DNA from: Hemiscyllium ocellatum | Taxonomy: Eukaryota | Direction: 5' to 3' | NCBI RefSeq assembly: GCF_020745735.1 | Contig: NC_083419.1 | Span: 76,868,738 to 76,932,737 of the forward strand | DNA: 64,000 bases | Shown here: positions 13,770 to 60,441 of the stretch, one piece after another | Layout of the letters: each line of letters opens with the position of its first letter | How positions within the stretch are numbered: position 1 is the first letter of the stretch | Program-made: the position numbers and the translations under genes | The notes under the pieces: model-generated | What the model was told of the DNA's origin: nothing | Seen by the model: only the letters and a program-made list of their open reading frames with translations | Database searches by the model: none

Positions 13770-14468
13770 GAGAAGGCCATCTGACCCATGAGTCTGCTCT
13801 GCCTTTCAATAACATCATGGATCATCTTTCAATGGACTGAGACACCACCTACCCACCCGTTCACTATAACCCTTCCTTCCTTTACTGTTCAAAAATCTAT
13901 CTTCACCTCTAAAACATTCAACAGGTTAGACTCAGCTGCTTCACTGGGCAGGGTATTCCACAGATTCATAACGTTTTGGGTGAAGACGTTCATCCCCAAC
14001 TCAGTCCTAAATCTGTCGCCCGTATTTTGAGGTTCTACTTTCACCCACCAGTGGAAATAGCCTCCCTGCTTCTGTTTCATATATCCCATTTATAATTTTA
14101 CAACCCCCTCCCCCATTCTTCTAAATTCCAATGAGTATAGTCCCAGTCTGATCAATAACTCCTCATAAGCCAACCCCCTCATTTCCAGAATCAACGTAGT
14201 CAACCTCCTCAGCAAATCCCACCCCAGTGCCGTCTCATGTAAGGCGTTGAAAAGTGTACAGAGTACTCCAGGCGTGGGCATACCAGCGCTCTATACAGCT
14301 GCAGCAGAAAGTCCCAATTTGAAACTCTATCCACTGGCAATGAAGGACATTATTCCATTTGTCTTCCTAACTAGCTACTGTACTGGCAAACCATACTTTT
14401 GTGTTTCATGCACAAAAACGCCCAGGTCCCCATGCACAAATGCATTTTGTGATTTTTCACCATTTTAC
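13770..14468 (-). mobile_element. Old CR1 3' fragments
   Basis: GDRFRTELGMNVFTQNVMNLWNTLP and YEELLIRLGLYSLEFRRM on the minus strand. Confidence 0.8.
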
Positions 14469-15453
14469 TAGCGGTGTACCACAAGGATCTGTTTTGGGAC
14501 CATTGCTTTTTGTTATCTTTATAAATGATCTAGAGGAAGGACTTGAAAGCTGGGTAAGCAAGTTTGCGGATGACACAAAAGTCGGTGGAGTTGTGGATAG
14601 TGAGGAAGGAAGTGGTAGGTTACAGCGGGATACAGATAAGTTGCAGAGCTGGGCGGAAATGTGGCAAATGGAATTCAATGTAGCTAAGTGCGAAGTCGTT
14701 CACTTTGGTAGGAATAACAAGATGATGGATTACTGGGCTAATGGTAGGCTACTTGGTAGTGTGGATGAGCAGAGGGATCTTGGTGTCCATGTACACAGAT
14801 CTCTGAAAGTTGCCACCCAGATAAATAGTGCTGTGAGGAAGGCATATGGTGTACTGGGCTTTATTGGCAGAGGAATTGAGTTCCGGAGTCCTGAGGTCAT
14901 GTTGCAACTGTATAAGACTCTGGTGAGGCCTCATCTGGAGTATTGTGTGCAGTTTTGGTCGCCATACTATAGGAAGGATGTGGAAGCTTTAGAACGAGTG
15001 CAGAGGAGGTTTACCAGGATGTTGCCTGGAATGGTAGGAAAATCTTATGAGGAAAGGCTGAGGCACTTGGGGCTGTTCTCATTGGAGAAGAGAAGGTTTA
15101 GGGGAGATCTGATAGAAGTGTATAAGATGATTAGGGGTTTAGATAGGGTAGATACTAAGAACCTTTTACCGCTAATGGAGTCAGGTGTTACTAGGGGACA
15201 TAGCTTTAAATTAAGGGGTGGTAGGTATAGGACAGATGTTAGGGGTAGATACTTCACACAGCGGGTTGTGAGTTCATGGATTGCCCTGCCCGTATCAATG
15301 GTGAACTCCCCTTCTTTATGGTCATTTAAGCGGACATTGGATAGGCATTTAGAAGTTATTGGGCTAGTATAGGTTAGGTAGGATTCGGTCGGCGCAACAT
15401 CGAGGGCCGAAGGGCCTGTACTGCGCTGTATCCTTCTATGTTCTATGTTCTAT
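14469..15453 (+). mobile_element. Young 5'-truncated CR1/HER1 LINE with an uninterrupted RT C-terminal ORF
   Basis: About 300 codons without a stop (GVPQGSVLGPLLF, FADD, LERVQRRFTRML, RGDLIEVYKM; stop at 15372), 3' UTR GGGCCGAAGGGCCTGTACTGCGCTGTA and a (TTCTATG)n tail; nested in an older antisense CR1. Confidence 0.93.
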
Positions 15454-23284: not shown

Positions 23285-23431
23285 ATGATCTTAACAAAAA
23301 CGTGATTTAAGTCAATAAGCATTACATTCATTTTTTGCACTCGATGACACATCTCAATGATCTTAACAAAAACGTGATTTAAGTCAATAAGCATTACATT
23401 CATTTTTTGCACTCGATGACACATCTCAATG
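23285..23431. repeat. Perfect 72-bp tandem duplication inside a CR1 remnant
   Basis: GATCTTAACAAAAACGTG...CACATCTCAAT occurs twice with period 72. Confidence 0.95.
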
Positions 23432-25880: not shown

Positions 25881-28689
25881 AATAAATACAAAATAACCGA
25901 GCCTGAATTTGGGATGATGTTAACAGGATTTATTTCGATCTAAGCATAAACAGACTATTTTGACATAACAGGTGCAGACATCGACTTTCTGAAAAAGCAG
26001 CTCGAGCGATCTAAGTTGGCACCAATATGAGTTTGGTCAATACTGAGGCAAAAATACAGCACCCAATCTTGAGTGAAATAAATAAAGAAACTATCTTAGC
26101 CCCGAAACAAGATAGAGTGTATTAAATATGAACAAAAACGCAATTATTTTAGGATATAATAGAAAAGTAATTTATAGTGTATTGAAATGTAAACAGAGAT
26201 GTGACATTGTGTCTCTAAGCTAAATTGGTCATTTCTTCCCAGCTAAATTAATCATTTCAGAAATGCCTTTGTTAAGCTTCATGTATCATTCGTCGGTCCA
26301 CTCCACGAATCTTGCAAGGTCCTTGTTAAATTCTGAACTATCGCCTTCCTTGTACACAGTGATTGTTCGTTTCATGGTACAGCAAATTGTGAAGTTGTGT
26401 ACTGTACGCCAATGTCTTTGTCAAGACTTCAAAGCAATCACACCTCCAAACATTTACAGAATATCACTATGGATCTTCCATGAGTCCAAAAAAATGATTT
26501 CTCAAATTTGCTCACATATCTATTGTGAAGGACGTTTTCAAATAACTTGAAATGCAAATGGTTCACATCAATCTGATGAAAGTAGCATTTCATGTGTTAC
26601 ACCACACAAAAAAAATCAAGCAAGTTTGTTGTCACGAGTTGCTCTGAGCATGTCTACGTTACATTCTTTTATCAAACAAAACCATTTCCAAGGTTGTGAT
26701 GGTTCGTCTATCTTCTGTGCAAAGGTCTGAATTTTGTGTCTGAATGCAGATGTAACTGGCTGCTCTGGGTAAAAGTATAATTTGTGCCTTTCACAATGTT
26801 AATGTATATTGTTGACTTTAGTTGAATAAAGTGATGTTGTTCCAGGCAATGTGTGGCACCATTAATTAGACCATGAATTTCCACATCACTAGCCGGAGAG
26901 TCAGATGGAGTTTATTGATATCATTGAAACGAAGGCTTGGAATATTTCCGGTATGAAGCATGTTAATTAGAGCCTCTGAACTAGACAAAGTAGGAAAGAT
27001 TAATTTCGAATAGTAGAACGTTTTCAAGACATAGAAAGATCGCTTCACCAATCGCACCATGTTCACATGAAAGCAGAGCCTTCCAGCCAACACACACTTT
27101 GTGAGGATTTCAACAATAGGGAACATGATTTTACAATGAGAGGAGAAAAAATTTAAAAAGGTTATCAGAGACAAATTTTATACAGAGAATGGTTTGTGTT
27201 TGGGATGATTTGGTGGTGGATATTTACAACAATTAGGAGACATTTGGATAAGTAAATGAATATCAAATGTTTGGAAGGATTTGGGCCAAGTACACACAGA
27301 TGCGATTAGTTTAGTTTGGGATTATGACTGGCATGGACTGGTTGGACCGAAGTGTCTTCAATCATGCTGTATCACTCCATGACTCTATGACTATTTATTG
27401 AGTTTTCTCAATATTAAACAGTGCTGCAGTGATCCTCGAATGAACTGTTGATGTTTAGGTTGTGTCTGAGACTTTGCGGATATTTTCTTCCATGAGAGGA
27501 GGGACGGGTTCTCCAAGTTTCACAACTGAAAAATAAAATTTTCTCCAGTATTGTTGCTGAGTAGATTTGTTTCTGCAGAGGCAGTGGTTATGGTTTGCAG
27601 TTGGCTTTCCACCAACTAGTCAACAGTGAGACAAAATATATTTGATCCACTGCAGAAACTCCACCTGCTTCCAGTAAATGAACATGGGAACTTAAGGACC
27701 TTTTCTGCAGTCAGCTTAATTGCTGCCAACTATTGTATCTGGCCAATTAAAGGGAAAACGAATCAACTAAATAAAATCCTGCCAAACAAAGTATATTTTC
27801 CCAATTACTCACAATGGTTACATTTCACTTGGTATTTCTTCTTTAAAAAGGAAAGTCACTGAATTCAGCATTCACTGTATGACTATCAGAAAACAGGTGA
27901 ATGACGTTTTGGTTAGTTCAGCCTGTTTATTGAGTATCTTTAAAGCTCCTGAATATGAAGTTAATGGATCCAAAATCCCACATTGCAGTAACTTTTTTTT
28001 ATCATCTCAAAGTAAATCAACAGCGCATTTTTGCTTATTTTTATGAGTTATCTGCCCCTGTCAGAGCTATCGGTGAGCAGAAAAATGTATTGTTTATAAC
28101 CTACATTCGTGGTAATCATTATTGTAATTCTCTCTAATTTAACCAAACATTCCTGATGTACCCAGACAGTTACCTGCAATTGTTTAGCCATTCAGGATTT
28201 TTAAAAAAAAACCTATGGACGGTCCTGTTTAGTTCATTAGATGTTCTTTCAAAAGTTTACCTCGGTGTCATGTATCACTGCCAACTCACTTTTTGTTTCT
28301 CAGACACACAGCTTTCCTTTACAATGCATTTTAGGATCGGAGTAATTTGAAAAAAAAAATAAGGAGATACATTCTGCAATGTAAGGAGGTGCTTCTAACC
28401 TCCGGGTCCAAACTGTTTAGTGACACACTCAATCACTTTAGACATGCTCCATATTTAGGTTGCCTAAATTGAATTTAGAAACGCAGATTAGAAATGATAT
28501 GTTATTTTGTAATATGAGAGAGACTTTGATTGACAGCAAAAATAAAGTCACAAACATTGTTAGCTATTAATATTATTGAATTTCTTTTTAGCTTTATCTG
28601 CTTGTGCTTGAATGTCGAACTAAAGGGAATTAACCTCTAATTGAATATTCAGAATATAATAACATTGGACACGCTCTGTATTCAATTTT

Positions 28690-28864
28690 TAGATTAGATT
28701 ACTTAATGCGTGGAAACAGAACCTTCGGCCCATCAAGTCCACACCGCCCGCCGAAGAGCACCGCCGCTCCTACCCCCCGACCCATTCCCCTACACCTAAC
28801 ACTCCGCGAAATTTAGCATGGCCAATTCACCTGACCTGCACATTATTGTACTGTGGGAGGAATC
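28690..28864 (-). mobile_element. HE1-type SINE 3' fragment directly upstream of the VH TATA box
   Basis: (TAGAT) tail, GGAAACAG..CCTTCGGCCC and GCATGGCCAATTCACCTGACCTGCAC; similarity stops at about 28864. Confidence 0.85.
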
Positions 28865-28983: not shown

Positions 28984-29032
28984 ATGATTGTGTCGACTAT
29001 TTTTCTCAGTTTGTTACTGACTTTCTCATCAT
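28984..29032 (+). CDS. IGHV: IgH leader exon (MIVSTIFLSLLLTFSS, phase 1)
   Basis: Hydrophobic signal peptide with donor T|GTGAGT; splices in frame to [11 protein letters not shown]. Confidence 0.92.
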
Positions 29033-29161: not shown

Positions 29162-29518
29162 GTGTCCAGTCGGAGGTTGTTTTGACTCAGCCAGATGCAG
29201 AGACTGGCCGTCCCACAAGCAGTCTGAAACGGACCTGTAAAACTAGTGGGTTCGATCTTAGCAGCTACAACATGTACTGGGTCCGACAAATTCCCGGACA
29301 GGGTCTGGAGTGGCTGGTACGCTACTATAGTCCATCCAGCAATAACTATGCACCAGCGATTAAGGGTCGATTTACTGCATCCAAAAACACTTCAAACAAC
29401 ATTTTCGCTTTGCACATGGGGAGCCTGAAGGTCGAAGACACCGCCATCTATTACTGTGCAAGTGGTTATAGCTGGAGTGAGTACTGGGGCCAAGGGACCA
29501 TGGTGTCAGTGACTTCAG
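29162..29518 (+). CDS. IGHV: Pre-joined VH-D-JH exon of a shark IgM heavy chain
   Basis: Acceptor TTTTTAAAG|; EVVLTQP...TC...[14 protein letters not shown]...[27 protein letters not shown] in one frame; donor G|GTAAG; no RSS between V and J. Confidence 0.96.
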
Positions 29519-29551: not shown

Positions 29552-29922
29552 AGATTAGATTAGATTACTTACAGTATGGAAACAGGCCCTTCGGCCCAAC
29601 AAGTTCACACCGACCCGCCGAAGCGCAACCCACCCATAACCCTACATGTACCCCCTACCTAACACTACGGGCAATTTAGCATGGCCAATTCACCTGACCC
29701 GCACATCTTTGGACTGTGGGAGGAAACCGGAGCACCCGGAGGAAACCCACGCAGACACGGGGAGAACGTGCAAACTCCACACAGTCAGTCGCCTATTTAG
29801 TAGTCAGAGAGCATTAGCTTTTGGATTGCAGGCCTGTTAGAACATAACAACATCCAAACATGAGAACCCGGGTTTCAGGCGCTGTAAGGCAGCAGTGCTA
29901 ACCACTGTGCCACCGTGCCGCC
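29552..29922 (-). mobile_element. HE1-type SINE variant, full length, with a 71-nt insert replacing part of the B-box region
   Basis: SINE 3' and 5' halves flank the insert at 29795-29865. Confidence 0.9.
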
Positions 29923-30389
29923 TACCAAGAACTTTCTTTTCATGTGACTATTTTCTGAATTAAATGAAACTCTGAGTCTGTGCTGAGTTTGGTTTGGTTC
30001 GGATTGATTATAGACTTCAGTTAAGGCTCAGCAAATAGTTAAAATGGTGATGATGGAGTCAATTGCTCTTTGGATCTCTTTTATTTTTATAAGATCGGCA
30101 TTCTGTGTGGCTGGGTTACTTGAAATACCTAATGTCTCTTAATCAGTCAGCTAAAAATAATGTTTAATGTCAGTGACACCCTGACTGTGAGTTTTATTAT
30201 CAACAACAAACGCTAAGCATTTAACGATGTTCAAAATATTACCAAACATGATTAAAATATGCTAAAATATCATTATTCATTTCTTGAATATATGTTCTTA
30301 CCATGATTATGCTTTCTCAATTATTTTGCTAATTTTGTTAACGGCAATCAGCTTACAAACTATCATAACATTTTCTCGCGGTGTTATAC

Positions 30390-30660
30390 TTCATTCTGTT
30401 GATTAGATTCTGAGTTTATTTTACTTGATTTGGTTGAACTGTGTTGATTGGATTTTGGCTTTGTTTTTAGTTGGTTTTGTTGAATTGTGTTGATTGACTT
30501 TTGAAATTGTTTTATTTGATTCTGTTGAAATGAACTGTTTGGATTCTTAGTATGTTTCATTTAAATCTGTTGTTTTGAGTTGATTGGATTCTGATTTTAT
30601 TTTCCTTGATTCTGTTGAATTGACTTGATTGGATTCGTATTCAGTTTGTGAAATTGATCT
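30390..30660. repeat. Degenerate T-rich minisatellite, 45-bp period, about 6 copies, in the J-C intron
   Basis: GTTG(AA) anchor at 30433, 30479, 30524, 30569 and 30614. Confidence 0.8.
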
Positions 30661-35949: not shown

Positions 35950-36540
35950 AAGTTTTCTAAACGTACAATGTGATCTTGATCAGCTGGGCCAATGGGCTGA
36001 GGAGTGGTAGATGGAGTTTAATTTAAATGAATACGACGTGTTGCTTTTTGAGAAGACAAATCAGGTCACAACTTACAGAGTTAATGACAGGGTACTGGGA
36101 AGTGATGTTAAATACAGGGCTCTGAGGGTTCAGACTCATAGAGTCTTACAGAGTTAATGGTAGGGCAGTGGGTGGTGATGTTGAACACAGGGCCCTGAGG
36201 AATCAGACTCATAGATTCTTGAAAGCGTTGTCTCAAGTAGCTAGCGTGTTGAAGGTGTTTGGCACTTGTACTTTCATTGTTGAGAGCATTGAGTGCAGGA
36301 GTTGGGGATTCATGTTGTAACTGTACAAAATATTGGACTGAACTGCCAGAGGACGTGGTAAATGCAGAGATAGGTACAACATTTAGAAGACACTTGAACA
36401 GCTACAGGAACTGGATAGGTCTAGATGGATATGGGCCAAAGTCAGGCAAGTGGAATGAGTGTAATTTGGGAACTCTGGTCAGCATGGATGAACTGGACCA
36501 AAAGAACTGTTTCGGTGCTATATGATTTTATGACTCACTG
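35950..36540 (+). mobile_element. Old CR1 3' fragment
   Basis: Degenerate RT C-terminus and 3' UTR (ATGGGCCAAA...GGACCAAAAG). Confidence 0.7.
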
Positions 36541-39566: not shown

Positions 39567-39872
39567 AGATACCTTCTCCCCCCACGCTGTATGGTCTGGT
39601 CACCTCCTGTCAGAAGCACAACACCGGTTCCGTGATCTTTGGTTGTTTGGTGATGGACTATTCCCGTGACGTCACCAATGTAACCTGGAAGAAAGGTGGG
39701 GAGCTAATCACGACTGGATTGAAGACTTATTCATCAGTGAGAAACAAGAACGGAACCTACACCCTGAGCAGCCAGTTAACCGTGCCCAACTCAGCGGTAG
39801 ATTGCCCCAGCAAAATCTACTGTGAGGTTCAACACAGCGGGTCACACAAAAGCAAAGAAATGCCATGTCAAG
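39567..39872 (+). CDS. IGHM: IgM CH1 exon
   Basis: TAG acceptor, phase 1; [15 protein letters not shown]...FGCLVMDY...TW...IYCEVQH...MPCQ; donor G|GTAAGT. The Cys in TSC is the position expected to bind light chain. Confidence 0.95.
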
Positions 39873-44603: not shown

Positions 44604-44915
44604 GTCCAGATATTCTCCAACCAACTCTTCTCCTTACTGTGAGCTCCAGTGAAGAAATCGCAAACAGCAAGTTTGCAACCGCTGTCTGTTCAATCATCGA
44701 TTTCCATCCGAAGTCAATCTCCATGATCTGGTTGAAAAATGGCCGACCCTTGGATTCTGGCTTCTTCACGTCTCCCGTGTGTGAGGCAAACGGGAATTTC
44801 TCGGTGACGAGTCGGCTGATGGTCCCTTATGGTGAATGGTTCAACAGCGCAGTCTATACCTGTCAGGTCACTCATGGAGAGAACATTCAAAGTAAAAATA
44901 TTACCTCACTCCAGG
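44604..44915 (+). CDS. IGHM: IgM CH2 exon
   Basis: AAG acceptor, phase 1; [18 protein letters not shown]...[10 protein letters not shown]...WLKNG...YTCQVTH...; donor G|GTAAG. Confidence 0.95.
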
Positions 44916-47008: not shown

Positions 47009-47314
47009 ATACCGAGTGCCACGCTAACACCGTTAAAATCCTCCCACCACCAGTAGAACAAGTCTTACTGGAGGGGACGTTGACGTTAACCTGCGTTTTG
47101 TCCAATCTTCCTTCTGGAGTCAACGTTACCTGGACACAGGAAAAGAAGCCTCTGAAATCAGAGATTGCTGACCAGCCTGGACAGAATCCCGAAAGCCTGA
47201 TCAGCAAATTGGACATTTCTACTGAAGTCTGGCTGAGTGGTGTTACTTTTGAATGTGTGGTGTACTATCAGAATCTATCGACTTCGCTGAGAGACTCCAT
47301 CCACAAGGAGAAAG
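47009..47314 (+). CDS. IGHM: IgM CH3 exon
   Basis: AAG acceptor; [29 protein letters not shown]...[10 protein letters not shown]...FECVV...SIHKEK; donor G|GTGAGC. Confidence 0.95.
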
Positions 47315-47767: not shown

Positions 47768-48159
47768 TGATTAATCTGCTGGAGCCATCAGTGTCGGTCC
47801 TCCTGCCACTAACAAAAGAAATCCCCGCTCAGACGTTTCAATCCCTCACCTGTTTAGTGAGAGGTTTCTCCCCCCAAGTGATCTTCGTCAAGTGGACAAG
47901 CAATGACAAGCCAGTGAATCCCAGTAACTACAAGAACACCGAGGTGATGGCAGAGAGTGACAACATCTCCTTCTTCATGTACAGCCTGTTATCCATTACA
48001 GCGGAGGAGTGGGCCAGTGGTGCTTCTTACTCCTGTGTGGTGGGACATGAGGCAATTCCATTGAAGATCATCAACAGAACAGTCGATAACTCCAGCGGTA
48101 AACCGAGTTTCGTAAACATTTCAATTGCATTGATGGACACTGTTAATTCATGTCAATAA
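47768..48159 (+). CDS. IGHM: IgM CH4 exon plus secretory tailpiece
   Basis: CAG acceptor; [10 protein letters not shown]...WTSND...[25 protein letters not shown]; tail [20 protein letters not shown] with sequon and penultimate Cys; internal donor G|GTAAAC at 48097/48098 for the membrane form. Confidence 0.97.
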
Positions 48160-48160
48160 A
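48155..48160 (+). promoter_or_regulatory. Candidate secretory poly(A) signal overlapping the stop codon
   Basis: CAATAAA contains both the TAA stop and AATAAA; T-rich tract at about 48202-48212. Confidence 0.55.
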
Positions 48161-48839
48161 AATCTCAAAGTTGCATTTAATAATTCAACAGAAATAATAA
48201 CGTTTTTATTTCCTCAAGTTGCGAGCTAAATACTGAATTAGTTGTTACTCACTCTGGCTTACATTCCATCTGTGCAGTTAAAGTGGATTATTAACAGGTC
48301 CAAGACGAGTGCCTTGTGTAGTTAATGTTTTCTGCTCAGATACACCCTGAGTCAGAGACAACGTAAAGCTCACTCATTGCAGGATTCCACCAAGTACCTT
48401 AGCCATCCTAAATCCCTCTGTGACAAAATCTGAGAATGTCCATTTTATATCAAGGGTATGGCACCAGTTTTGAACTTGGTGTTCTTGATTCCCCCGATTG
48501 GACATTCTTACAAAATTCATGTCAGTTTTAAACTGCCACTTTGCACCAATTGGAAATGTAAATTTAAGAAACGTTAAAATTAAACTTGATTGGAACATAA
48601 CAATCGTAAAGAGTGCAGAGCAATTTGAATGTAACCTTTGTTTCTGGGGAACTGCGAGGGATCTTGCGCCAGCGCATGAGTTGACAGAATGTATCTTCAC
48701 TTTCACACTGAAGAGAATCGATAGATGAGTTGTTGTGGAGCAGAAGTGAGAGGGACGATGAATGGTCTGTCCTCTTGCTCCCTGTGCAGAGTTTTCATGC
48801 TAGATGTCCTCTGTAATGTAATCCAGTTGCTAACAGGAA

Positions 48840-49063
48840 CTGAGCTGAAAATGTGTTGCTGGAAAAGCGCAGCAGGTCAGGTAGCATCCAAGGAGCAGGA
48901 GTGTAGACGTTTCGGGCATGAGCTCTTTTTCTGATTCCTGAAGAAGGGCTCATGCCCGAAACGTCGACTCTCTTGCTCCTTGGATGCTGCCTGACCTGCT
49001 GCGCTTTTTCAGCAACACATTTTCAGCTCTGATCTCCAGCATCTGCAGTCCTCACTTTCTCCT
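48840..49063. mobile_element. Penelope-derived hairpin element in the CH4-TM intron with a sense-strand hammerhead-like motif (48934-48969)
   Basis: Inverted arms; AUUC-CUGAAGA-A-GGGC-UCAU-GCCC-GAAACGUC-GACU on +. Confidence 0.75.
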
Positions 49064-49539
49064 GTTAACAGGAACAGTCAGCTTCTTGCTTGATGTCTGA
49101 AGATTTAAAATTTCCACGCAAAATAATACCTTTGAAATATGTTGGTCAAGCTCGGCCCTGTTAACAAATGATTAACATTGACTCCCATAAACTAAAACCA
49201 GTGTTTCCATCGTCTGGTCTGAATTCTATAGTTTGGGCTCAGTTTTCTGGAGCACATGGGATCAATTCAGGTAGTGGAGCACTTGATATCATTTCGTTTC
49301 ATATACAGAACACAAGTAGACGATTTCTGATAAACATATTCAGAAAAGTTATTTCTGGAGCAGTGGGGATTTGAACTCAGGCCTTTTGTCTCAGAGACAG
49401 AAATTCAATCATTGCAACAGATGAGTTGCTCAAAAACGCTTATCTCTCCACGACGATGGGAAATGTTTCCTGCAACACCAAGGTCAGATCTAATTTAGGC
49501 AATCCATTAAAATTAGAACAATAAAATTAGAATAATAAA

Positions 49540-50700
49540 AATTGCAGTCTGGTAAAAGAGCAGAAACATACATAGAGAGATTATCACAAATACACACGCA
49601 AAGACACATATACAGACTCTCACCTAAAGACAACTATTTACGTGCACACTCAAATATCCATATAGATAAGACGTCATACACGCATACATGCACGGAGCCA
49701 CACGTGCAAGTGATTTTTGAACACTCACCTAAGCTCTTAAAAAAACTCACATACACCGAAAGAAAAGCATTTGCACTAATGAACAGGGGTACTCTCACAT
49801 AACCATGAGAAACATAGAAACACGCTAACACACAAATGGACATGAATACATATACAAAAATACAGCATAATACATACAGACATACACACATGAACATACA
49901 GATACAAATTCCGAAAAATGTCCTCCCACATGTCGACTCACACAGGCACATAATTGCACAGAGATAAACATTAATATCATTATTTTCCCAATTTCAGTAT
50001 CACAAACATACGATGACAGAGGCATCTTAATTGGGTATTTTAAAACCACATTGATCAGCATGTATACAATGTCACACAGACACACAATTTCAGAGTCCCA
50101 CATGCAGTCACACAAGTGCATAAATCAAAAAATAGAGGGGCGTTTATTAAATAAGGATAATATGCACAAGCATCAGCAAGCATGCACAATTACACAAACA
50201 AGCTTATCAGGAGATGGTTTGGGAAGGATTGGCACAAAAGCAGACATCATCATATAAATATAAACATCCATCAAAACATGACTTTGAATGCTAACATTTA
50301 ATAAGCATAAACATGAAAATAACCTAGTGTAGGTAGGATCTGAAACAGACACATGAGCACTCATTTTAGATAGCACAATTGAAAAGTGAACACTCACAAA
50401 GACATTCCAAGATAAGCATAGTCATCAACGATGTAACATATTAGCATGATGATGGTTACACAATGTGAAAAGATCAAAATTTACGTACACAACCATATGA
50501 GCACACCAGCAGTAAAGGAACTGTGCACGAATGTGTTTGTTCGTGCACTGACTCCGACATGGGCAAGAGTGAAGCATGAGACTCTCATAACCACATACAC
50601 AAACATTAAAGGAACACCAAACACACCAAGCAGTGGATCAAATAAATTAAGGGACACATGTACAAAAACTTATTCCTAAATATACAGATCCTACAAATAA
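49540..50700. repeat. About 1.2 kb of CA-rich cryptic low-complexity sequence
   Basis: Dense ACAC/ACAT/CACA motifs; explains the Cys/Val-rich minus-strand ORFs. Confidence 0.75.
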
Positions 50701-51097
50701 AAATACGAAGCAATGTCCTGACTGTGATGTCAATTCTATTCATGAGTTGCCAAGCAAATAGTCATCAATACGTAAAGATGAGAATCACATTTGAAGTTTT
50801 ATTCAGTGATGGCCACACTTTTCAACTAAACTGCTGTCACAGCCTATATTTAAAATATAATGATATAATTAAATAATCATTTGTAATAAGCATCCCACAA
50901 ATAATAATATCTTCCAATGATAGATTACAAAAAATATAAATATTCTGACATGGACAATGAAGAAATAACGGGTTCAGTTACTGTTTGTAATTTCTTGCTG
51001 AGACTCAACAATGCACTAATAGTTGCAGATAAGAGTCACACTTGGGAAATACCTGACTGCTTTATGAAGATGTAATGATCTCTAATTGCACGACTTG

Positions 51098-51716
51098 CAT
51101 GGGAGGTGGGGAGATGTGTTGTTTTCGCAGGTGTAGCGAGAAGGTAGGTGGTGATGGTGGGCTTGAGTGTGGTGCTGGTGGGTCGGGAGGGGGATTAAAT
51201 CAGCAAGCACTAGGGAAATGTATAATTGGGTACTAACTTTAGTGCATAATTATTCTAGTAAATAATTTAGTCTCAGCAAAACAGCTGGGATAGCTGAAAC
51301 ACACGAACTAGGCAACTAAAGACACATTGTTAAAATGTATATTCAGGAATGGAATATACCTGTGAACAATGGAAGATTTTACAAGCAAACAGATAAAGTG
51401 ATAGGAACATCAAGATCCAAGTTTAGCAAAATCTTCCTAATGTCAGCACTTACAGATGGAAGGGTCGCCAACTTGGAGAAGGGGGGAAATAATAAGAGCG
51501 GATCGCAAGTTAGTCATAGAATAAAGTTGATTGGGAAATGTAGGAGTCAGAAGTGGTGACCTCATGCAGCTCAAAAGTATAACTGTGTACTAGTTTGAAT
51601 ATTCATTGCTCATTTGCTTCTGCATTTGATGTCTTTTCTTGCAAGATCATAAAATAAATTGTCTTGTTTCCAGTTTTGGTGGTCTCGTCTAAATTTTATT
51701 AAATTTGTTTCTAACA
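51098..51716 (+). repeat. ERV 5' LTR (619 bp)
   Basis: Aligns with 59071-59701; ends TTTCTAACA; AATAAA at about 51520 and 51653. Confidence 0.92.
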
Positions 51717-51720
51717 GATT

Positions 51721-51739
51721 TGGAGGCTCATCCCGGGAA
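51721..51739 (+). promoter_or_regulatory. Primer-binding site, tRNA-Pro-like
   Basis: TGGAGGCTCATCCCGGGAA versus the canonical Pro PBS TGGGGGCTCGTCCGGGAT, 4 nt after the LTR end. Confidence 0.75.
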
Positions 51740-51980
51740 TGCAAGCTCCAGTCGCTCGGCATTTTTGAGAAAACGGAGAAGGTGCACCTCGCTGATTTCG
51801 GCGGTCTCTAGTGCCCCTCCTTGCCGCAAGCGGCCTGTGCGAGCGTGATCGGGACTGAGAGACCCTGGAAAAAAGACAGGAAGACGCGGCGGTTTCGGTC
51901 AGGTGACTCTTGTGTGCACAAGATCCTGGGAAGAAAAGTCTTAAAAAATTTATCCAGGCGACCGGGGGAGGCAGCGGTAT

Positions 51981-52400
51981 TTGCTGCCAGTTGGATATAT
52001 CCGGGGATCCGGGGAACCGGGGTTCCGGTCGACGGGTGTTGGTTCTGTAATTGCTGCCAGTTGGATACATCCGGGAGTCTGGCAGCAGTATTTGCTGCCA
52101 GGTGGATGTATCCACGTATCTGGGCGACCGGAGTAGGTAGCGGTAGTTGCTGCCAGTTGGATAAATCTGGGTGACCGACATTGGTAGTTGCTGCCTGGTG
52201 GATATATCTGGGGATCCGTGGAACCGGGGTTCTGGGCGACAAGGTTGGGCGAATCCGGTCGAACAGTGTATGTAGTAGGAATTGCTGCCAGTTGGATTTA
52301 TCCGGGGATCTGGGGTTCTGGGGTTCTGGGCGACCAAGTTAGGTAAATCCGGTCGACCAGGGTAGGTAGCGGTAGTTGCTGCCAGTTGGATATATCCGGA
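51981..52400 (+). repeat. Seven-copy tandem repeat array in the ERV 5' leader
   Basis: Core TTGCTGCC(A/T)G(T/G)TGGAT at 51981, 52051, 52092, 52147, 52188, 52282 and 52376, with variable spacers. Confidence 0.9.
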
Positions 52401-52728
52401 TTTGCCGCAGGACGGGGCACGCTGAAACGACCAGGTAACTCTGTGCACAGACCATGGTTAAGAAAATGGACCTTTAACTATTCCCTTGGTGGTCGGAGAA
52501 GTACGAGAAGTACGGGAAATTGACAACATTTAAAATAAAATATTTAATTAGATAGATTAATTTGATGAGTAAGGTGTCTACGTGATTCGACCATGCAGCC
52601 TTAGACTGGTTGTTAAGAGGGGAAAACCCCCATGCGAAGATCAGTACACTGAAGTGGGCGTGGAAGAAGGTGACACCGGTCCTCAGTAAGGTTAATTAAA
52701 TTACATAAAGAAACGGCCGAGTGTTCAA

Positions 52729-54231
52729 ATGGGAAATAAGAATAGTCGTTTGTGTCGAAGGGGACATGAGAGGGACGTCTGAGGACCATATCCCAACACA
52801 CAGTCCTAAAGAAAAAATGTTAAGAGATTGGAAGTACAATCCTCGGATGCGAGGAAATGATAATAAAAACAAATGATAAAAAATTGTTGTTTCATCTGGA
52901 CAAAGGAAAGCATTAAACCTCCAAGTGTTTTTTTGGTCTAAATATGGGTCAGATGAAGATTGGCTATGTCAAGAGTTAAATATATATGTAAATAAGAAAC
53001 AACGATACTCCCGGAAAGAATCTGACTATATCACCTGTTGGATAGGAAGTCCGAAAATCTTTGTCTTGAAAAAGTCAAAGACAGAAGAAGGTGATGAGAA
53101 ACCAAAGGTTTCCCGTTGGGATCCTCTGTCAATTTTACCTCCCTCTTACGACAAAGACAATAATGGTCCGTCGTCGTCGTCGTCCCCCTCTCCCACAGCG
53201 CCCCCTCTCCAGTGCAATAAACTGAAAAGAGTCAAGAGAGAAACTTCCCCGTGAGTCCAATTAAAACTAGATCAACAGTGAAAAGGAGGGAGGAGTGGGA
53301 CATAGGCGGGGCAGCAACACATATATTACCTTAGGGAAGTACCTGTCGGTAACGGCGAAATCGGATATGTTAATGCACCACTGACTAGTAGTGAATTTAG
53401 AACCCTTAAAAAAGAAATGAAAAGTTTGATTGAGGACCCCGTACAATTGGCAGAACAGTTGGATCAACTTTTGGGGCCGAATTTGTATACATAGCGTGAA
53501 CTGATGAGCATTCTAGGGACGCTATTTTCAGGAGAAGAGAGGGGTATGATTAGAAGAGCTGCTCTAAAGGAATGGGAAAAGAGACATCCAGAGGGTAGGG
53601 GAGTAATACCAGCCGAAAACAAATTTCCCAATGTGGACCCTCATTGGAAGGGCATGGATGAACGCAAAAGGGGAGAAATTATAGACTTTCGAGAAATGGT
53701 CATTTGGGTATTAAAGAAGCAGCACCTCGATCTCAGAATTTTGTGAAAGTCTTTGAATTGAGACAGGAGAAAGATGAAACCCCGTCGGCATTCTTCCAGA
53801 GACTAAAAGAGGCTGCTAGAAAATATTTGTAAATGGATCCCAATGATCCGGTAGCTCAGGAAATTTTAAAGGTCCAGTTTGTGAGTAAATCATGGCCGGA
53901 CATACAAATGAAGTTACAGAAAATAAAAGGATGGAGTGAAAGACAGATGGGAGAAGTGTTACATGTGCACAGAAAGTGTATGTGAAAAGAGAAGACGAGA
54001 AACAAAAACAGAAAGCTAAAATAATGGTCGCAGCGGTTGAGGAAATTACGAAGAGAAGGTTAGAACCAAAAAACAACGGGAGGACAAGAGAGAAAGAGCG
54101 TAGATTGTAGAGAAAGAAGGCAACAGGCAGGATGTCATTACTGCTGAAAAGTAGGGCATTTTAAAAGGCAATGTCCAATGCTAGAACAATAAAGACAGGC
54201 AGTTTCATTGATGACGTTTGATGAAGAATAG
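52729..54231 (+). pseudogene. gag: ERV gag (frameshifts and stops)
   Basis: MGNKNS myristoylation-type start, FW.KYGSDEDWLC, MHR-like RQEKDETPSAFFQRLKE, CHYC*KVGHFKRQC zinc knuckle (54133-54174), TAG at 54229-54231. Confidence 0.9.
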
Positions 54232-57200
54232 GGGAGTCAGGGGTTCCTCCTCCATTGGGAATCCTTGATAAATTTAAAATGGGACCCGAAGGAGAAGAGG
54301 CAGTATTCTTGGTGGATACGGGAGCAGCACGGTAATCCCTAAGTTTTAGACGTAGCAGAGTTTAAATTGACTAACAAGGGTCTTAGGATTTCTGGAGTAA
54401 AAGGTGAAAAATTCTTAGTGCCCATTTTCAAGCCGACTGTAATAAAGGAAATAGCAAAGAAGTGAACGGACAATTATTATATATTCCTAACATTGAAAGC
54501 AATCTTTTGGGTAGAGATTTGATAATTTTGTTAAATTTAAAGATTGAAGTGGAGAATACTTCAGTAGCTCTGATGATCAATAAATTAACGATTAGTGACG
54601 AAGAACAGATAAATCCCAACGTGTGGGCAAGAGCTGGGAACTCAGGTTATTTGAACATTGATCCGATCGTAATTACACTCTCCCAAGAGAATTAAGACAG
54701 TAAGATTAAAACAGTATCCGGTTTCATTAGAGGGATGCAAGGGTCGACAACAAGTAATAGATTCTCTAGTTAAAGAAGGACTATTAGAACCATGCATGTC
54801 ACCCTTTAATACCCGAATACTACCCATCCGGAAACCAGATGGAACTTACCGACTGGTACAAGATCTCAGATCAGTGAACCGACTGGTCCTTACATGGCAC
54901 CCGGTGGTACCCAATCCATACACGCTTTTGAGTAAGATACTGTGTGATCATCGCTGGTTTAGTATAATGGATTTAAAAAGATGCATTCTTGGCTTGTCCT
55001 TTAGCCCCAGAAAGCCGCGACATGTTCGCTTTTGAGTGGGAAAACACATACACTGGCAGAAAACAACAGTTCCAATGGACAGTACTTTCCCAGGGATTCA
55101 CAATTTCACCTAATTTATTCGGACAAGTACTGGAACTAGTCCTGGAACAATGTAAAATGCCACAAGAGACGTCACTGTTGCAATATGTGGACGATCTACT
55201 TGTATCAGGACGAAAGATAAATTATGTAAGTTGGGCCACGAATGGACTGTTAAATTTCCTAGGGCAGCAGGGTTTAAGAGTATCTAGGAATAAATTGCAA
55301 TATGTCGAGAAAGAGGTGAAACTGACAGGGTCCGAATACTAAAGTCTGCATTGGACAGAAGAGGAGAAGGAAGTGTTACACGAGTTGAAGCGTAGTCTAA
55401 TACAAGCTCCAGTATTGGCCCTGCCGAGAGAAATCATTTCTCCTTTTTGTGACAGTAAATGATGGAGCAGCTTTAGGAGTGTTAACACAGAAAAGAAGGG
55501 GAAGGAGGTATCCCATAGCTTTCCTGTCTAAGATCTTGGACCCTGTCTCGAGGGAATCGCGTGAATGTATACAGGCAGTAGCAGCAACTGTCATATTGGT
55601 AGGGGAAAGTCGAAAACTTACTTTTGGAGTGGTGCTCGTCGTTAGAACCCCCCATCGAGTCAGAACTGTGTTAAAACAAAAGGCAGGGAGGTGGTTGACA
55701 GATTCTCGAATTTTAAAATACGAGGCCATCCTGATGGAGACAGATGACCTTGCATTAGCAACAGACACCTGTCTAAACCCAGCTACCTTCCTATGGAAGG
55801 GAGAACCTCTGGACAAACCAGAATTAGAACATAACTGGTTAGATATCATCGAGTATAAAACCAAAGTTACACAGGAACGAAGAGATATCCCCTTACATGG
55901 GGGACAGATTGTTTATAGATGGGTCATCGAGAGTAGTGGAAGGAAAAAGACACAATGGATATGCAGTAGTAGACGGTAATGAGAACCGAACAGTGGAAGC
56001 TGACCGGCTGCCTAACACATGGTCGGCCCAGACTTGTGAACTATACACTTTAAACCAAGCTTTAAAATACTTAGAGAATCGAGATGGAACAATTTACACC
56101 GACTCTAAATACGCTAACAGGGTAGTGCATACTTTCGGAAAGATATGGCAAGAACGAGGACTAATCAATAGTCAGGGGAAGGAATTAGTACACGAAGAGT
56201 TGATAGGACAAGTATTGAAAAGTTTGTAATTGCCCAGAGAAATAGCTGTCGACCATCTACACGGACATCAGAAAGGGAACATTCTAGAAGCAAGGGGAAA
56301 CAGACTATCAGACGAGACAGCCAAAGAGGCAGCTATGAACCATACAGCAACAAGGATACAGATTCTTACACCCCTAGTCGACTCTTCTTCTGTGATCCCT
56401 GTGTACACAGAAGAAGAGAAAAAAAGAATTCCAAGAAATAGGAGCCACTAAGACAAAGGAAGGTGGATCCTCCCGGATGGGAGGGAATTGTCGAGTAAAC
56501 CATTCATGAGAAACATCTTAGCCACTTTACGCCAGAGAAGTCATTGGGGCTCCCAAGCTATTATGTGACATAGTATTAAGGAAATATGGATGTTATGGAA
56601 TATATACGTTGACAAAACAGATATGTGAAAGGTGTGCAACTTGTCAGAAGATCAATAAGAAAGTAACAAGGGAAGGGCCAAAAGGAGGGAGAAACCCAGG
56701 GCGAGACCCTTCCAAAGTAGACAGATGGATTAGACTGAACAACCCCCAGCTGGAAAACAGAAGTACCTGTTTTTCCTCGTAGACCAGCTAATCAGGTGGG
56801 TGGAAGCTATCCCAATATCATTGGCCACCTCAAAAAGGGGTGGCAAAAACCTTCCTTGAACATATCATCCCACGATATGGAATCGTGGAAAGTATAGATT
56901 CAGACCAAGGTAGCCATTTTACTTCCAAGATCCGACAAGAAGTAATGGCAGGATTAGAGATCTCTTGGGAATTCCACACACCTTAGCACCCACCTTCCTC
57001 TGGACAGGCGGAACGAATGAATCAGACCTTAAAGAAACAATTATACAAGCTAGTCCGAGAGACTCAATTACCATGGACCAAAAATTTGCCTATTTCGCTA
57101 TTACGCGTTCGGAGTGCCCCAAGGCGAGTTATCGGCCTTTCTCTCATTAAATGATATTTGGGCTACCATTCCTGGGAGGGAAAAGGGGACGTGCCTACAG

Positions 57201-57538
57201 CTGAGTTTAATGACAAGTTTTTGAAAAATTATATTGTGGCACTTGGCTATTCATTATTTATTCTTAGGAATAAAGGCCTGTAGGTACAGACACCGCCACT
57301 TGAGTTTGCAGCACATCGCATACAGCCGGGTGATTGCGTCCTGATCAAGACCTGGAAAGATACTAAACTGCACCTGAGCTGGGAGGGACCATTCCTTACC
57401 CCCCTGACTACTGAGACAGCTGTCCAGACTGCTGAGAAAGGGTGGAGTCATCACACTCGCGTTCAAGTTCCTGTGTACGCCCCATCAGCGGAGTGGCAAG
57501 CTCATCCTCCAGACAACCCTCTGAAAGATAAGCTGTGA
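54232..57538 (+). pseudogene. pol: ERV pro-pol (protease, RT, RNaseH, integrase), disrupted, with an apparent deletion after the RT core
   Basis: LVDTGA (54315-54323), PILPIRKPDGTYRLVQDLR-type motif, SQGFTISP, QYVDDLL (55184-55195), LFIDGSS, IYTDSKYA, HLHGHQKG, SIDSDQGSHFTS. Confidence 0.93.
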
Positions 57539-57546
57539 AAAAAGGA

Positions 57547-58943
57547 ATGAACTAAGACAAAAGACTTTTTTTAACGCTCGATTGTTATTGATTGTGAAGG
57601 CTGCTTGGACTCACCACTCCCTGGCACCTAAAAGATTAAGACAGGTAGAGAGATGGGCAGGTACTGGTATAGTATTATAACATAAGTAGCATTAATTGTT
57701 CAAGGAGGAGGGAAAAATCACTTCACTTCACTATGCCAAGATTATGCTGAACAAAAAGGACTTGCCGACTGTTCGGTCTGAGCAGAGGCCCCACAACATA
57801 GCGAATCTGGGATCCCCATCTCGGTAATACCGCTCACCAAGAAGTGTACGATATACAACAATTTGACTCGGACGCAAATGATACAATGTGGAGTTTTGAC
57901 AGGGGTGAATATAACTTTGCGGGATGGTTCCTTAGACCAGCCCCGAAAAATCCAGGATGCTATCGATGGCGTTAGAGTTTCCCCACCGAAAGGAGCAGTA
58001 AATGCCACCTGTTTCTGTAATCAGAATGACGCCGCACCCTTCCAATTAGGAAAATCATCTTGTGTCTACACCAGCCAAACCACTACCACGACCATTCCCC
58101 TTATATTAAACGGAAGATGTTGGGTATGCGGCCTGAAGGTCTATCTATTTACTCCCGTGGAAAAATACATTCGCGTGACCGACTGTATAGAAATGCATGC
58201 ATGATATGATGTTGATGAAACACTGCCTCAAAGCCAGTAAAGCTGGGATGGCTGCTGTTACCTCGCTTATATAGTTCCTCACCTCCGATTAGAAAAACAT
58301 GAGCACAACCTGAGAAAGGAGGGGGGAATAAGACGTAAGGCCCGAGAGGTTTCTGAAGGAGACCACCTGTTGTGGACACTACTCCCAAACTATGGCGCTG
58401 CAAGGGCAGGGGTAGAAATACAGAAACTGGCAGCTGCCCTTGAGAAGTTAATTAATGTTACTGTCGACGCAATGCGAGAAAGCCAGTCCCAAATATCGGC
58501 TATAACCATCAAAATGTTTGCTACAAGACTAACAGCTTTACAGAATCGAATGGCTTTAAACTATCACTTGGCCGAAAAAAGGGGGAAATTATGCTCTGAT
58601 TAGTAAGGAATGCTGCACCTCCATCCCAGACACCTCTTCCACAGTGGAAGGGAAGGTAGAAATAGTTAAGAAAAAAGATAAAGAATATAAGAGAAACCGA
58701 GGATGAACTTCGAAGGATGAGAGATGTGAATGGGGCGACTGGGGACTGACTGGTTGGAGATCGTGGCTAGCTAATTTACGCATTTATGTATTACTGATAA
58801 TAATATGTCTAATCATAGGATTTAACGTGTTAAAGTGGATAATGAGTAAGTTGGCAATGTCTTTAGGAGGAGGAAAACAATCAATGTTGGTCATGACAAC
58901 AGCTCGCGCACAAGAAAGCAAGAGTAGCAGATTACTCCTATAG
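57547..58943 (+). pseudogene. env: ERV env (gamma-type TM subunit), disrupted
   Basis: CWVCG motif, RRKAR furin-like site (58331-58345), LQNRMALNYHLAEK immunosuppressive-domain-like stretch, degenerate x-ALISKECC (CX6CC-like), hydrophobic anchor near 58780-58850. Confidence 0.85.
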
Positions 58944-59070
58944 TTTGAAAAAGGCAGACTTAGGAGGGCAGAAATGGCAAGATTGTGAATCTCTGCACTT
59001 TAGGGAGAAAAGAAGGCATAAAATAAAATTGCAAAAACAACAAATGGTAAAAGAAAAGAAATGACGGCGT

Positions 59071-59701
59071 TGTGGGAGGTTGGGAGGTGTGTTGTTTTCG
59101 CAGATATAACGAGGAGGTGGTGATGGTAAGCTTGAGTGTGGTGCTGGTGGGTCGGGAGTGGGGGCAGCTGCAGACAATGATAAAATGAGCAAGCACCAGA
59201 GAAATGAATAATTGGGTATTAACTTTAGTGCATAATTATTCTAGTAATAATTTAGTCTCAGCAAAATAGCCGAGATAGCTGAAACACATAAACGAGCCAA
59301 GAAAAGACACATTGTTAAAATGTATATTCAGGAATGGAATTTACCAATGAACAATGGAAGATGTTACAAGCAAACAGATAAAGTGAAAGGAACATCAAGA
59401 TCCAAGTTTAGCAAAATCTTCCTTATGTCAGCACTTATAGACTGAAGGGTCGCCAACTTGGAAAAGCGGGGAAATAATAAGAGCGGATCGCAAGTTAGTC
59501 AGAGAATAAAGTTGATTGGGTAATGTAGGAATCAGAAGGGGTGACCTCACGCAGCTCATAAGTATAACTGTATACAAGTTTGAATGTTCATTGCTCATTT
59601 GCTTCTGCATTTGATGTCTTTTCTTGCAAGATCTTAGAATCAGTTGTCTTGTTTCCAGTTTCGGTAGTCTTGTCTAAATTTTATTTAATTTGTTTCCAAC
59701 A
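59071..59701 (+). repeat. ERV 3' LTR (631 bp)
   Basis: Starts TG after the purine tract AAAAGAAAAGAAA (about 59049-59061) and ends CCAACA; homologous to the 5' LTR. Confidence 0.92.
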
Positions 59702-59772
59702 ACTTGGATGCAGACAGATCGATCTGGATCAATAAACAATCTAACTGCGTTCTCTCGGCTTTATATTCATAG

Positions 59773-59900
59773 ATTCAATAGATTGCACTTGGATTGAAGA
59801 CTGTGAGGATGATAATAGCAACATCTGGACAACTGCTTCCACGTTCATCACCTTGTTCTTCCTGAGTATGTTCTACAGTGCTGCCGTCACTCTGGCGAAG
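59773..59900 (+). CDS. IGHM: IgM transmembrane exon TM1
   Basis: Branch-point-like CTAAC (59741), TAG acceptor, phase 1 matching the CH4 internal donor; [43 protein letters not shown] with the antigen-receptor TM motif; donor AAG|GTGAGA. Confidence 0.94.
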
Positions 59901-60040: not shown

Positions 60041-60049
60041 ATTAAGTGA
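60041..60049 (+). CDS. IGHM: IgM TM2 exon (IK-stop)
   Basis: TCTTTTCCAG|ATT AAG TGA gives the short K-I-K cytoplasmic tail typical of membrane IgM. Confidence 0.85.
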   Translation: MK

Positions 60050-60435: not shown

Positions 60436-60441
60436 AATAAA
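60436..60441 (+). promoter_or_regulatory. Candidate membrane-form poly(A) signal
   Basis: First AATAAA I found after the TM2 stop (about 390 nt); AT-rich context makes it weak. Confidence 0.35.

Follow-up and report, generated by a model that had tools for sequence, protein, structure and literature searches.

The mammalian μs/μm switch sets Cμ4-M1 splicing against use of the secretory poly(A) site, and is built from a composite terminal exon, a weak internal donor, and TM exons further downstream. Intronic poly(A) use in IgM is governed by intron size and 5' splice-site strength (PMC3708835, citing Peterson and Perry), although the dependence on intron length in that source was measured in mouse constructs. 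Mammalian genomes are depleted of full-length LTR elements within 2-5 kb of exons. Mutagenic mouse LTR elements fall mostly in this depleted zone (29 of 40) and in sense orientation (20 of 26), and chimeric ESTs are recorded for 2.9% of the human LTR elements there (PMC3088655).

Germline-joined heavy chains are known from other sharks. The nurse shark IgM1gj gene, in which a fully joined VDJ precedes the μ constant exons and the secretory tail is canonical, demonstrates that such H chains can be plentiful as serum antibodies in neonates (PMC5192425, PMC4279169). For the germline-joined H chains of horn shark, transcripts were not detected (PMC2193156). Elephant shark CmiERVs, which belong to the fish/vertebrate class I ERVs, have the order LTR-gag-pro-pol-env-LTR and LTR divergences of 0.024-0.033 (PMC4422223).

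The window analyzed here, 64 kb of Hemiscyllium ocellatum DNA, resembles each of these systems in part. It carries an IgM gene with all the elements of the μs/μm arrangement, a joined VDJ like that of IgM1gj, and a provirus with the gene order of the CmiERVs that, unlike them, sits within an Ig gene. No report of such a locus turned up among the open-licence papers searched; supplements to the bamboo and epaulette shark genomes or subscription papers could annotate it.

A germline-joined IgM minilocus

The host gene has the organization L-V(D)J-CH1-4-sec-TM1-TM2 with μ-type sequence, and lies entirely on the + strand. A TATA-like V promoter element (TATAAA, 28891) is followed by the leader exon (28984..29032) and by a VDJ exon (29162..29518) that is fused in frame in genomic DNA, lacks recombination signal sequences (RSSs), and encodes a short CDR3 of 11 residues. 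Scanning the 64 kb yields a single RSS-like match, at 35202, and none at V or J. Next come CH1 (39567..39872), CH2 (44604..44915), CH3 (47009..47314), and CH4 with its secretory tail (47768..48159), which has an internal donor after 48097, a secretory stop at 48157-59, and a secretory AATAAA at 48155. A loose poly(A) end at 48188 is found in a related organism's sequencing run, guessed to be RNA. TM1 (59773..59900) is open in frame, TM2 (60041..60049) encodes IK-stop, and the membrane AATAAA is at 60436. Together, TM1 and TM2 differ from the closest relative by five replacements, two of which are new cysteines. Searches of the window return no Rfam matches and, with ARAGORN, no tRNAs. Scans for loci related to CH4 confirm none of the stretches examined (0 of 132 from metagenomes, 0 of 77 from prokaryote genomes).

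Two SINE-like repeats (unstranded) also occupy risky spots in this gene, at the promoter and at the J donor. The first (28687..28862), 70-82% alike to 8 other copies within the window, ends 29 nt before the promoter TATAAA. The second (29552..29928) is younger, up to 96% alike to other copies, and starts 33 nt past the J donor.

An orthologous relationship to IgM1gj is rejected. The gene here retains CH2, which is absent from IgM1gj, and its V is nearer a conventional Chiloscyllium V (89 of 118 residues identical to a C. punctatum V, 72 of 117 to IgM1gj). That C. punctatum V continues beyond its V end as an unrearranged segment would. The joining here is independent of that in nurse shark. IgM1gj may itself lack a membrane form, a possibility that carries no weight in what follows.

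An old provirus in the CH4-TM1 intron

The provirus spans 51098-59701 (8,604 bp), sense to the gene, with gag-pro-pol-env on the + strand. Its two direct LTRs (617 and 631 bp) are bordered on each side by the target site duplication (TSD) ACTTG, at 51093..51097 and 59702-06. The 5' LTR (51098..51716) starts with CA and carries TATAA at 51578 and AATAAA at 51520 and 51653; a GU-rich stretch follows the AATAAA at 51653. The 3' LTR (59071..59701) starts with TG, with TATAA at 59563 and a U3 AATAAA at 59505. A PBS-like 18-mer (51721..51738), which we take to be tRNA-Pro-like, precedes a leader (51900..52440) containing 94-96-nt tandem repeats. The coding region consists of a broken gag remnant (approximately 52750..54231), a pro-pol remnant with many stops and frameshifts (54232..57530; RT, RNase H, and IN-like), and a broken env-like remnant (approximately 57650..58930). 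The order gag-pro-RT-RNaseH-IN is retained, with Pfam matches to RVT_1, RT_RNaseH, and RNase_H, and pol is collinear in tblastn with a 1,163-aa pol and with gag-bearing relatives, with an internal gap of ~66 codons against one relative. Neither of the two env-region ORFs matches Pfam; we take the region to be env-like from the TM motifs in its translation, which are immunosuppressive-domain-like and Cys-Cys motifs.

The RT best matches MMLV-type structures (E ~1e-18, compared to 1e-4 for foamy virus and HIV-2) and also matches unnamed pol proteins from catshark, rays, snakes, and birds at 55-74%. It has a YVDD motif, and a stop codon separates gag from pro, presumably a read-through arrangement. 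These features point to a class I-like (gamma/epsilon-like) ERV, a placement that spans both gamma and epsilon elements.

The provirus is old and dead. Its LTRs are 91.7% alike, differing at 51 of 612 positions (8.3%; a divergence of 0.089, well above the CmiERV values). Its pol has 19 stops over six partly overlapping matches and at least five frame changes. A recent or mobile element is rejected on the strength of the broken frames and the LTR divergence.

The provirus also appears to exist as one copy across roughly 20-35 sister clusters. Of 23 sequencing runs listed, 20 contain part of the window and none contains half of it; no RNA run is listed among those containing it, which is no evidence on expression. 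Four of the 23 were examined. In one (X1), three of the eight listed contigs fall inside the ERV at depths of 3.7-5.0, with 0, 0, and 1 differences, and three host-intron contigs have depths of 90-128. In another (X5), a contig of depth 35 begins to match at exactly 59702. The sister clusters appear to be without the ERV, although the joint of an empty site is not among the 15 joints listed of 461. At six listed CH3/CH4 sites, the window's letter is absent or nearly so in the four runs, including in the DNA run with an exact match to the ERV; run contigs lose rare variants, and these missing letters say nothing on expression. Ratios of CH4 to TM depth in two further runs (X8 and X16) are contig depths and were left out of account. 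The host intron differs from sister contigs at 238 of 2,781 positions (8.6%), indistinguishable from the LTR-LTR difference (Fisher p=0.94).

Processing signals in the enlarged intron

The preliminary description had placed a sense ERV in an 11,675-bp CH4-TM1 intron, and this geometry holds. The intron (48098..59772) runs from the CH4-internal donor (AGC G/GTAAAC) to the TM1 acceptor, and subtracting the provirus and one TSD (11,675-8,604-5) leaves 3,066 bp, so that the proposed fourfold expansion is 3.8-fold as measured. Provirus and gene share the + strand, and the distance from the 3' LTR end to TM1, put at about 70 bp, is 71 nt, of which the TSD takes five and host intron 66 (59702..59772). 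As described, the branch-point-like CTAAC (59741-59745) and the TM1 acceptor are spared. A contig from another organism's run, guessed to be RNA, omits exactly these 11,675 bases (GT..AG). This single contig, with 27 letters on its shorter side, supports these splice sites as a general feature of IgM genes and not for this copy.

Several of these signals bear on how the intron might be processed. Scored out of nine against the U1 consensus, the CH4-internal donor is weak (5/9), and the two donor-like sites noted earlier in the proviral leader reach 8/9 each (CAG/GTGACT at 51903 and CAG/GTAACT at 52435). The latter cannot intercept the CH4 donor and matter only for RNA started in the LTR. The LTR AATAAA signals that had been described are present at 51520, 51653, and 59505, but the 3' LTR has none in its R region; the place that matches 51653 (59638-59643) holds no canonical signal, and only the U3 hexamer is kept. 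The ERV is rejected as a special source of AATAAA, since its density (13 in 8,604 bp, 1.5/kb) is no higher than that of the host intron (5 in 2,979 bp, 1.7/kb). One host AATAAA, at 59731, lies in the 66 nt between the 3' TSD and TM1. A coding transcript from the 3' LTR into TM1 is also rejected. An unspliced RNA of this kind would be non-coding, since an in-frame stop lies 12 codons ahead of TM1 and no ATG occurs between the two.

The earlier expectation of premature polyadenylation or mis-splicing stands insofar as the geometry is a risky one, but the expected outcome is not a broken transcript. Cleavage past the secretory stop without CH4-TM1 splicing yields ordinary secreted IgM, so that intronic cleavage is expected to encode the secreted protein without truncation and to shift the ratio of secreted to membrane forms. 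Like the mutagenic sense intronic insertions of mouse IAP and ETn/MusD elements, and like the transposable element-derived soluble immune isoforms sPD-L1 and IL18R1-short (PMC13709765), the locus has a sense element close to an exon, with a poly(A) signal ahead of a TM exon. Unlike in these cases, the host gene already makes a secreted isoform, which implies a ratio shift and no new protein, and the element is old, decayed, and known from DNA alone. The retained secretory stop, like the germline-joined VDJ, the age and decay of the provirus, and the relaxed constraint described below, goes beyond the preliminary description.

The ERV might be harmless, with TM1 exon definition intact, the LTRs silenced or decayed, and both forms made normally. 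The branch point is accompanied by an intact acceptor AG, no additional AG past the branch point, and a pyrimidine tract of 15/20 (12-16 in the gene's other acceptors); AATAAA is not enriched in the ERV; and fixed intronic LTR elements are mostly benign, as the low frequency of chimeric ESTs suggests (PMC3088655). We nevertheless consider this distinctly unlikely. The weak CH4 donor has to contend with the secretory site, four host AATAAA, and the LTR signal over 11.7 kb, and the accelerated protein change in the cluster would stay unexplained.

Constraint on the cluster and its implications

Constant-region amino-acid changes are concentrated on this branch. Compared to the C. punctatum relative, counts are 31:5, 28:3, and 24:5 with three outgroups (p=1e-5 to 6e-4), about a sixfold excess in the first case (p=1e-5), and CH4 alone gives 10:0. 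Otherwise invariant columns are altered at 11/159 here and 0/159 in the closest relative. CH1-CH4 have changed at about 9-10% and TM at 5/45; relaxation specific to TM is rejected because the constant domains changed as fast. The match between LTR and host-intron divergence suggests that these changes piled up over about the age of the provirus, and the whole cluster is probably under relaxed constraint.

Complete silencing, with frames kept open by chance and ascertainment and an ERV that has no phenotype, is rather unlikely in our estimation. Changed polarizable codons (31/330, 9.4%) do equal the 9.5% obtained by simulating neutrality over the LTR branch length, and invariant columns show no significant sparing (11/159 versus 20/171, p=0.19). 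A SINE adjoins the promoter, and joined horn shark H genes were not detected as RNA (PMC2193156). However, both the membrane and secreted frames are open and all splice dinucleotides are canonical, which is improbable after about 4% change per site, even granting a few dozen clusters. In neutral simulations, the 573-aa secreted frame and all splice sites survive in at most 1 of 1,500 trials at d=0.044 and in 8 of 1,500 at d=0.03. Because such survival is so rare under full neutrality, some selection has acted.

What that selection preserved might be the secreted product. The provirus could have made a germline-joined heavy chain effectively secretion-only, with the secreted frame maintained while the protein diverged, a history to which we assign a low probability. 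It is similarly doubtful that a starved CH4-TM1 splice removed the conflict between a pre-assembled chain and one-receptor-per-B-cell exclusion, or that a fixed-specificity antibody came to be secreted without being displayed as a second B-cell receptor, though neither idea lacks points in its favor. The pre-joined VDJ is in frame, the secreted frame is intact at odds of about 0.1%, the insertion lies exactly in the intron that decides between secreted and membrane forms, the 5' LTR signal is intact, and IgM1gj supplies a precedent as an abundant neonatal serum antibody (PMC5192425, PMC4279169). Against this, relaxation is not limited to TM, with CH1-CH4 equally fast and CH4 at 10:0, and Leu20 of the V-domain core, which is Leu in 22 of 23 relatives, is replaced by Arg. 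TM1, TM2, and their splice sites are also intact, although this is uninformative, given 39-47% survival under simulated neutrality.

The explanation we favor, with about even confidence, is that a weakly constrained cluster tolerates the ERV as a passenger, one that likely tips its output towards secreted IgM and is neither a null mutation nor a coding exaptation. A class I-like retrovirus long ago entered one of many IgM miniloci, in sense orientation and 71 nt before TM1. Judging from the matching divergences, this cluster may have split from its sisters at about the time of insertion, and somewhere on the same branch may have become germline-joined and much more weakly constrained. The insertion could have drifted to high frequency, since a redundant, pre-joined cluster needs no efficient membrane form. 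Provided that the gene is transcribed, two features would favor the secreted form, as reasoned from mammalian IgM processing: the lengthened intron that follows a weak CH4 donor, and the intact 5' LTR poly(A) signal.

Some observations fit the passenger explanation poorly. A passenger in a dying gene leaves the evidence of selection unexplained. Long introns occur elsewhere in the gene (J-CH1, 10,048 bp), and divergent clusters are not rare, as C. punctatum cluster P0034 breaks 21/180 invariant columns. Taking the collapsed sister contigs as an approximation of the ancestor would double the length of the branch and reduce constraint by only about half.

This locus bears on how sharks tolerate pre-joined heavy-chain clusters beside heavy-chain exclusion. 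It offers a natural test with controls: about 20-35 sister clusters are seemingly without the ERV, letters private to this copy stand on either side of the CH4-TM1 junction, and the LTRs provide a clock for the branch. The secretion-only history, if true, would make the cluster an innate antibody gene of the IgM1gj type, independent in origin and with a switch of retroviral making. Should the membrane form prove to be depleted, a retroviral insertion would be linked to an antibody gene's switch between secreted and membrane forms; otherwise, this would be an ordinary old insertion in a copy of the gene that is drifting.

Anatomy of the host gene and its provirus

The window contains a single shark IgM heavy-chain minilocus, in which a leader exon (28984-29032) and a fused VDJ exon (29162-29518) precede CH1-CH4, the secretory tail (to 48159), TM1 (59773-59900) and TM2 (60041-60049). 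Splicing the exons by script leaves an open frame for both the secreted (573 aa) and the membrane (598 aa) form, and the splice dinucleotides are canonical. A contig from another organism's run, guessed to be RNA, excises exactly the 11,675-bp CH4-TM1 intron (one contig, likeness 85, with 27 letters on its shorter side). CH3-CH4 and TM1-TM2 are joined there too, with a loose poly(A) end at 48188. These joints support the exon model and are not specific to this copy.

The VDJ exon has a short CDR3 and a framework Arg where 22 of 23 relatives have Leu. Neither V nor J has a recombination signal nearby, the sole RSS-like match in the 64 kb lying at 35202, and a somatic rearrangement caught in the assembly is unlikely. 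The nearest named relatives are Chiloscyllium punctatum chiPu_0018444/18445 (CH1 84/99, CH2 95/103, CH3 86/100, CH4 96/109 and TM1 38/42 identical), whose V reads beyond the V end and resembles an unrearranged segment. Unlike IgM1gj, the germline-joined IgM of nurse shark, the window gene retains CH2, and V identity between the two is only 72/117, so its germline joining is an independent one. SINE-like repeats closely flank the V exon, one (28687-28862) 29 nt upstream of the TATA-like box of the promoter and the other (29552-29928) 33 nt past the J donor, and a minisatellite with a 45-nt unit occupies 30398-30636 in the J-CH1 intron.

The preliminary description of a sense provirus in the CH4-TM1 intron (48098-59772) is borne out and accurate in its measurements. 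The intron is 11,675 bp long, and 3,066 bp are left once the provirus (51098-59701, with ACTTG on either side) is removed. The element, said to stop about 70 bp before TM1, ends 71 nt short of it and spares a branch-point-like CTAAC at 59741.

Remnants of RT, RNase H and an integrase-like domain follow one another on the + strand in the order expected of a retrovirus. Compared with MMLV-type structures, foamy and lentiviral ones are far poorer matches to the RT fragment, which matches unnamed vertebrate pol proteins at 55-74%. Decay is extensive: pol carries 19 stops and at least 5 frame changes across six partly overlapping matches, with a gap of about 66 codons. Neither of two ORFs in the region 3' of pol has a Pfam match; this region is a putative env, recognised only by its motifs. 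Between the LTRs, 51 of 612 columns differ (28 transitions, 23 transversions; K2P 0.089) and 5 gaps occur. This puts the insertion at 22-89 My if the rate lies between 2 and 0.5e-9, as assumed here; the 2.2e-10 in the available text of PMC4422223 would make it about 200 My, and the age is safe solely in relative terms. The leader (51950-52430) contains 94-96-nt tandem repeats, and its CpG observed/expected of 0.92 compares with 0.38-0.63 for the host intron and the remaining parts of the element. Relatives of this ERV family, matching 51100-59700, occur in runs X8 and X16 from two other organisms, among them contigs of an RNA-guessed run at 8-13% difference.

Elsewhere in the window are an open LINE-type reverse transcriptase fragment (14371-15372, 333 aa, Pfam RVT_1), an exact 72-nt tandem duplication (23285-23428), a 73-nt duplication (36072-36220) and an assembly gap (1255-1407, 153 N). 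Two database proteins on contigs below 800 bp probably reflect contamination of public records: P0035, a shark IgM-like protein assigned to Aeromonas veronii, and P0211, an ERV RT of vertebrate type assigned to Klebsiella pneumoniae.

Copy number and sister clusters

Contigs from four of 23 listed runs were compared with the window, the comparison covering 32 of some 187,600 pieces and 15 of the 461 joints; none of the 23 is recorded as RNA or holds half of the window's words. Among the pieces listed for DNA run X1, which may be the assembly's own sample, three contigs within the ERV, at depth 3.7-5.0, match it fully in two cases and with 1 difference in the third. In the host intron, three contigs reach depth 90-128 and differ by 6-10%, and two more have depth 4-5 and differ by 11-14%. 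These depths imply that the ERV is single-copy and that roughly 20-35 sister clusters are collapsed; for C. plagiosum, the available text of PMC8692893 gives 37 IgM clusters.

In X5, another sample, a depth-35 contig first matches at 59702, the base right after the 3' LTR, behind 113 unmatched letters. This fits sister clusters without the ERV; an empty-site joint is absent among the 15 of 461 joints listed. At several ERV places, X5 contigs of depth 2 to 6 share the letters of the window; this would fit, though it does not prove, a second animal carrying the same copy.

RNA-processing signals

The AATAAA hexamers (about 51520, 51653 and in the 3' LTR) and donor-like sites (near 51900 and 52432) attributed to the provirus are all present. 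The ERV has 1.5 hexamers per kb and the host intron 1.7, four host hexamers preceding the provirus. Only the hexamer at 51653 stands in a setting like that of an LTR R region, beside a GU-rich stretch, and its 3' LTR counterpart is non-canonical. The CH4 donor is weak (5/9; other donors of the gene score 6-8) and the TM1 acceptor is ordinary. Another host AATAAA (59731) comes 10 nt before the branch-point motif of TM1. In the same intron, a 188-nt self-complementary repeat (48842-49029, 89% inverted identity) has enormous depth in all four runs and is a very high-copy MITE/SINE-like element.

Since the secretory stop precedes the remainder of the intron, cleavage at the LTR would yield secreted IgM with a long 3' UTR. 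In mammals, use of the intronic IgM poly(A) site is set by intron size and donor strength (PMC3708835, citing Peterson and Perry, in its available text). Sterile TM RNA could start in the 5' LTR and use leader donors, or start in the 3' LTR; in the latter case an in-frame stop lies upstream of TM1, with no ATG in between.

According to the available text of PMC3088655, full-length LTR elements are depleted near exons and mutagenic ones concentrate there; fixed human elements in this zone give chimeric ESTs in only 2.9%. It is doubtful that the ERV leaves splicing wholly unaffected, a reading that the 2.9% figure and the similar hexamer densities favour and the weak CH4 donor disfavours. Exaptation of the ERV as a secretion-only switch is a similarly slim prospect, one that the R-like context of 51653 would favour.

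Protein change and the standing of the cluster

The constant region has changed faster on the window branch than in the C. punctatum relative (31:5, 28:3 and 24:5 with three outgroups; p=1e-5, 5e-6 and 6e-4), with 10:0 in CH4 alone. TM changes are 3:0, 2:2, 4:0 and 3:0 with four outgroups, and V changes are 9:5, 8:2, 7:3, 8:4 and 7:5. Among columns invariant in eight other shark IgMs, 11/159 are altered in the window copy versus 0/159 in the relative; each nurse shark chain breaks 1/160 and remoter sharks 6-11. Another C. punctatum cluster, P0034, breaks 21/180 otherwise invariant columns, so fast-diverging IgM clusters may be common. The last two thirds of CH2 (44670-44915) have zero polarised changes on the window branch, against about 1 per 13 residues in other domains, possibly through gene conversion or local constraint.

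Five contigs of organism A, all of high depth and wholly intronic, differ from the window intron at 238/2,781 positions, the same as the LTR pair (p=0.94); pieces that bore exons, had low depth or came from other organisms were excluded. If both lineages changed equally, sister separation, insertion and relaxation would be of similar age. Neutral evolution simulated over the branch length of the LTRs gives 9.5%, which the 31/330 changed residues (9.4%) equal. Should the collapsed contigs stand close to the ancestral sequence, constraint would be reduced by only about half.

A silent pseudogene is an unlikely reading. That neutral rate would suit it, as would the horn shark joined H genes, whose RNA was not detected according to the available text of PMC2193156. 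However, no more than 1 of 1,500 neutral runs at d=0.044 keeps the entire secreted frame (5-6% by the no-stop criterion alone), which speaks against pure decay. Because TM stays intact in 39-47% of runs, its open exons are uninformative. The available texts of PMC5192425 and PMC4279169 describe nurse shark pup serum dominated by a joined H chain, and that of PMC2435157 describes shark B cells expressing one functional H chain.

We lean, with about even confidence, to the view that the cluster, being redundant, germline-joined and under weak constraint, tolerates the ERV as a passenger, which would tilt any output to secretion. The anatomy, the decay, the depth-based copy numbers and the faster protein change are direct results; timing, causality and any consequence for RNA are inferences. 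Every ingredient of the locus is of a known kind, and no report combining an ERV with a pre-joined IgM appeared among the open-licence papers listed in the searches. The value of the locus is that of a natural experiment, open to testing, on how a pre-joined antibody gene switches between secreted and membrane forms.
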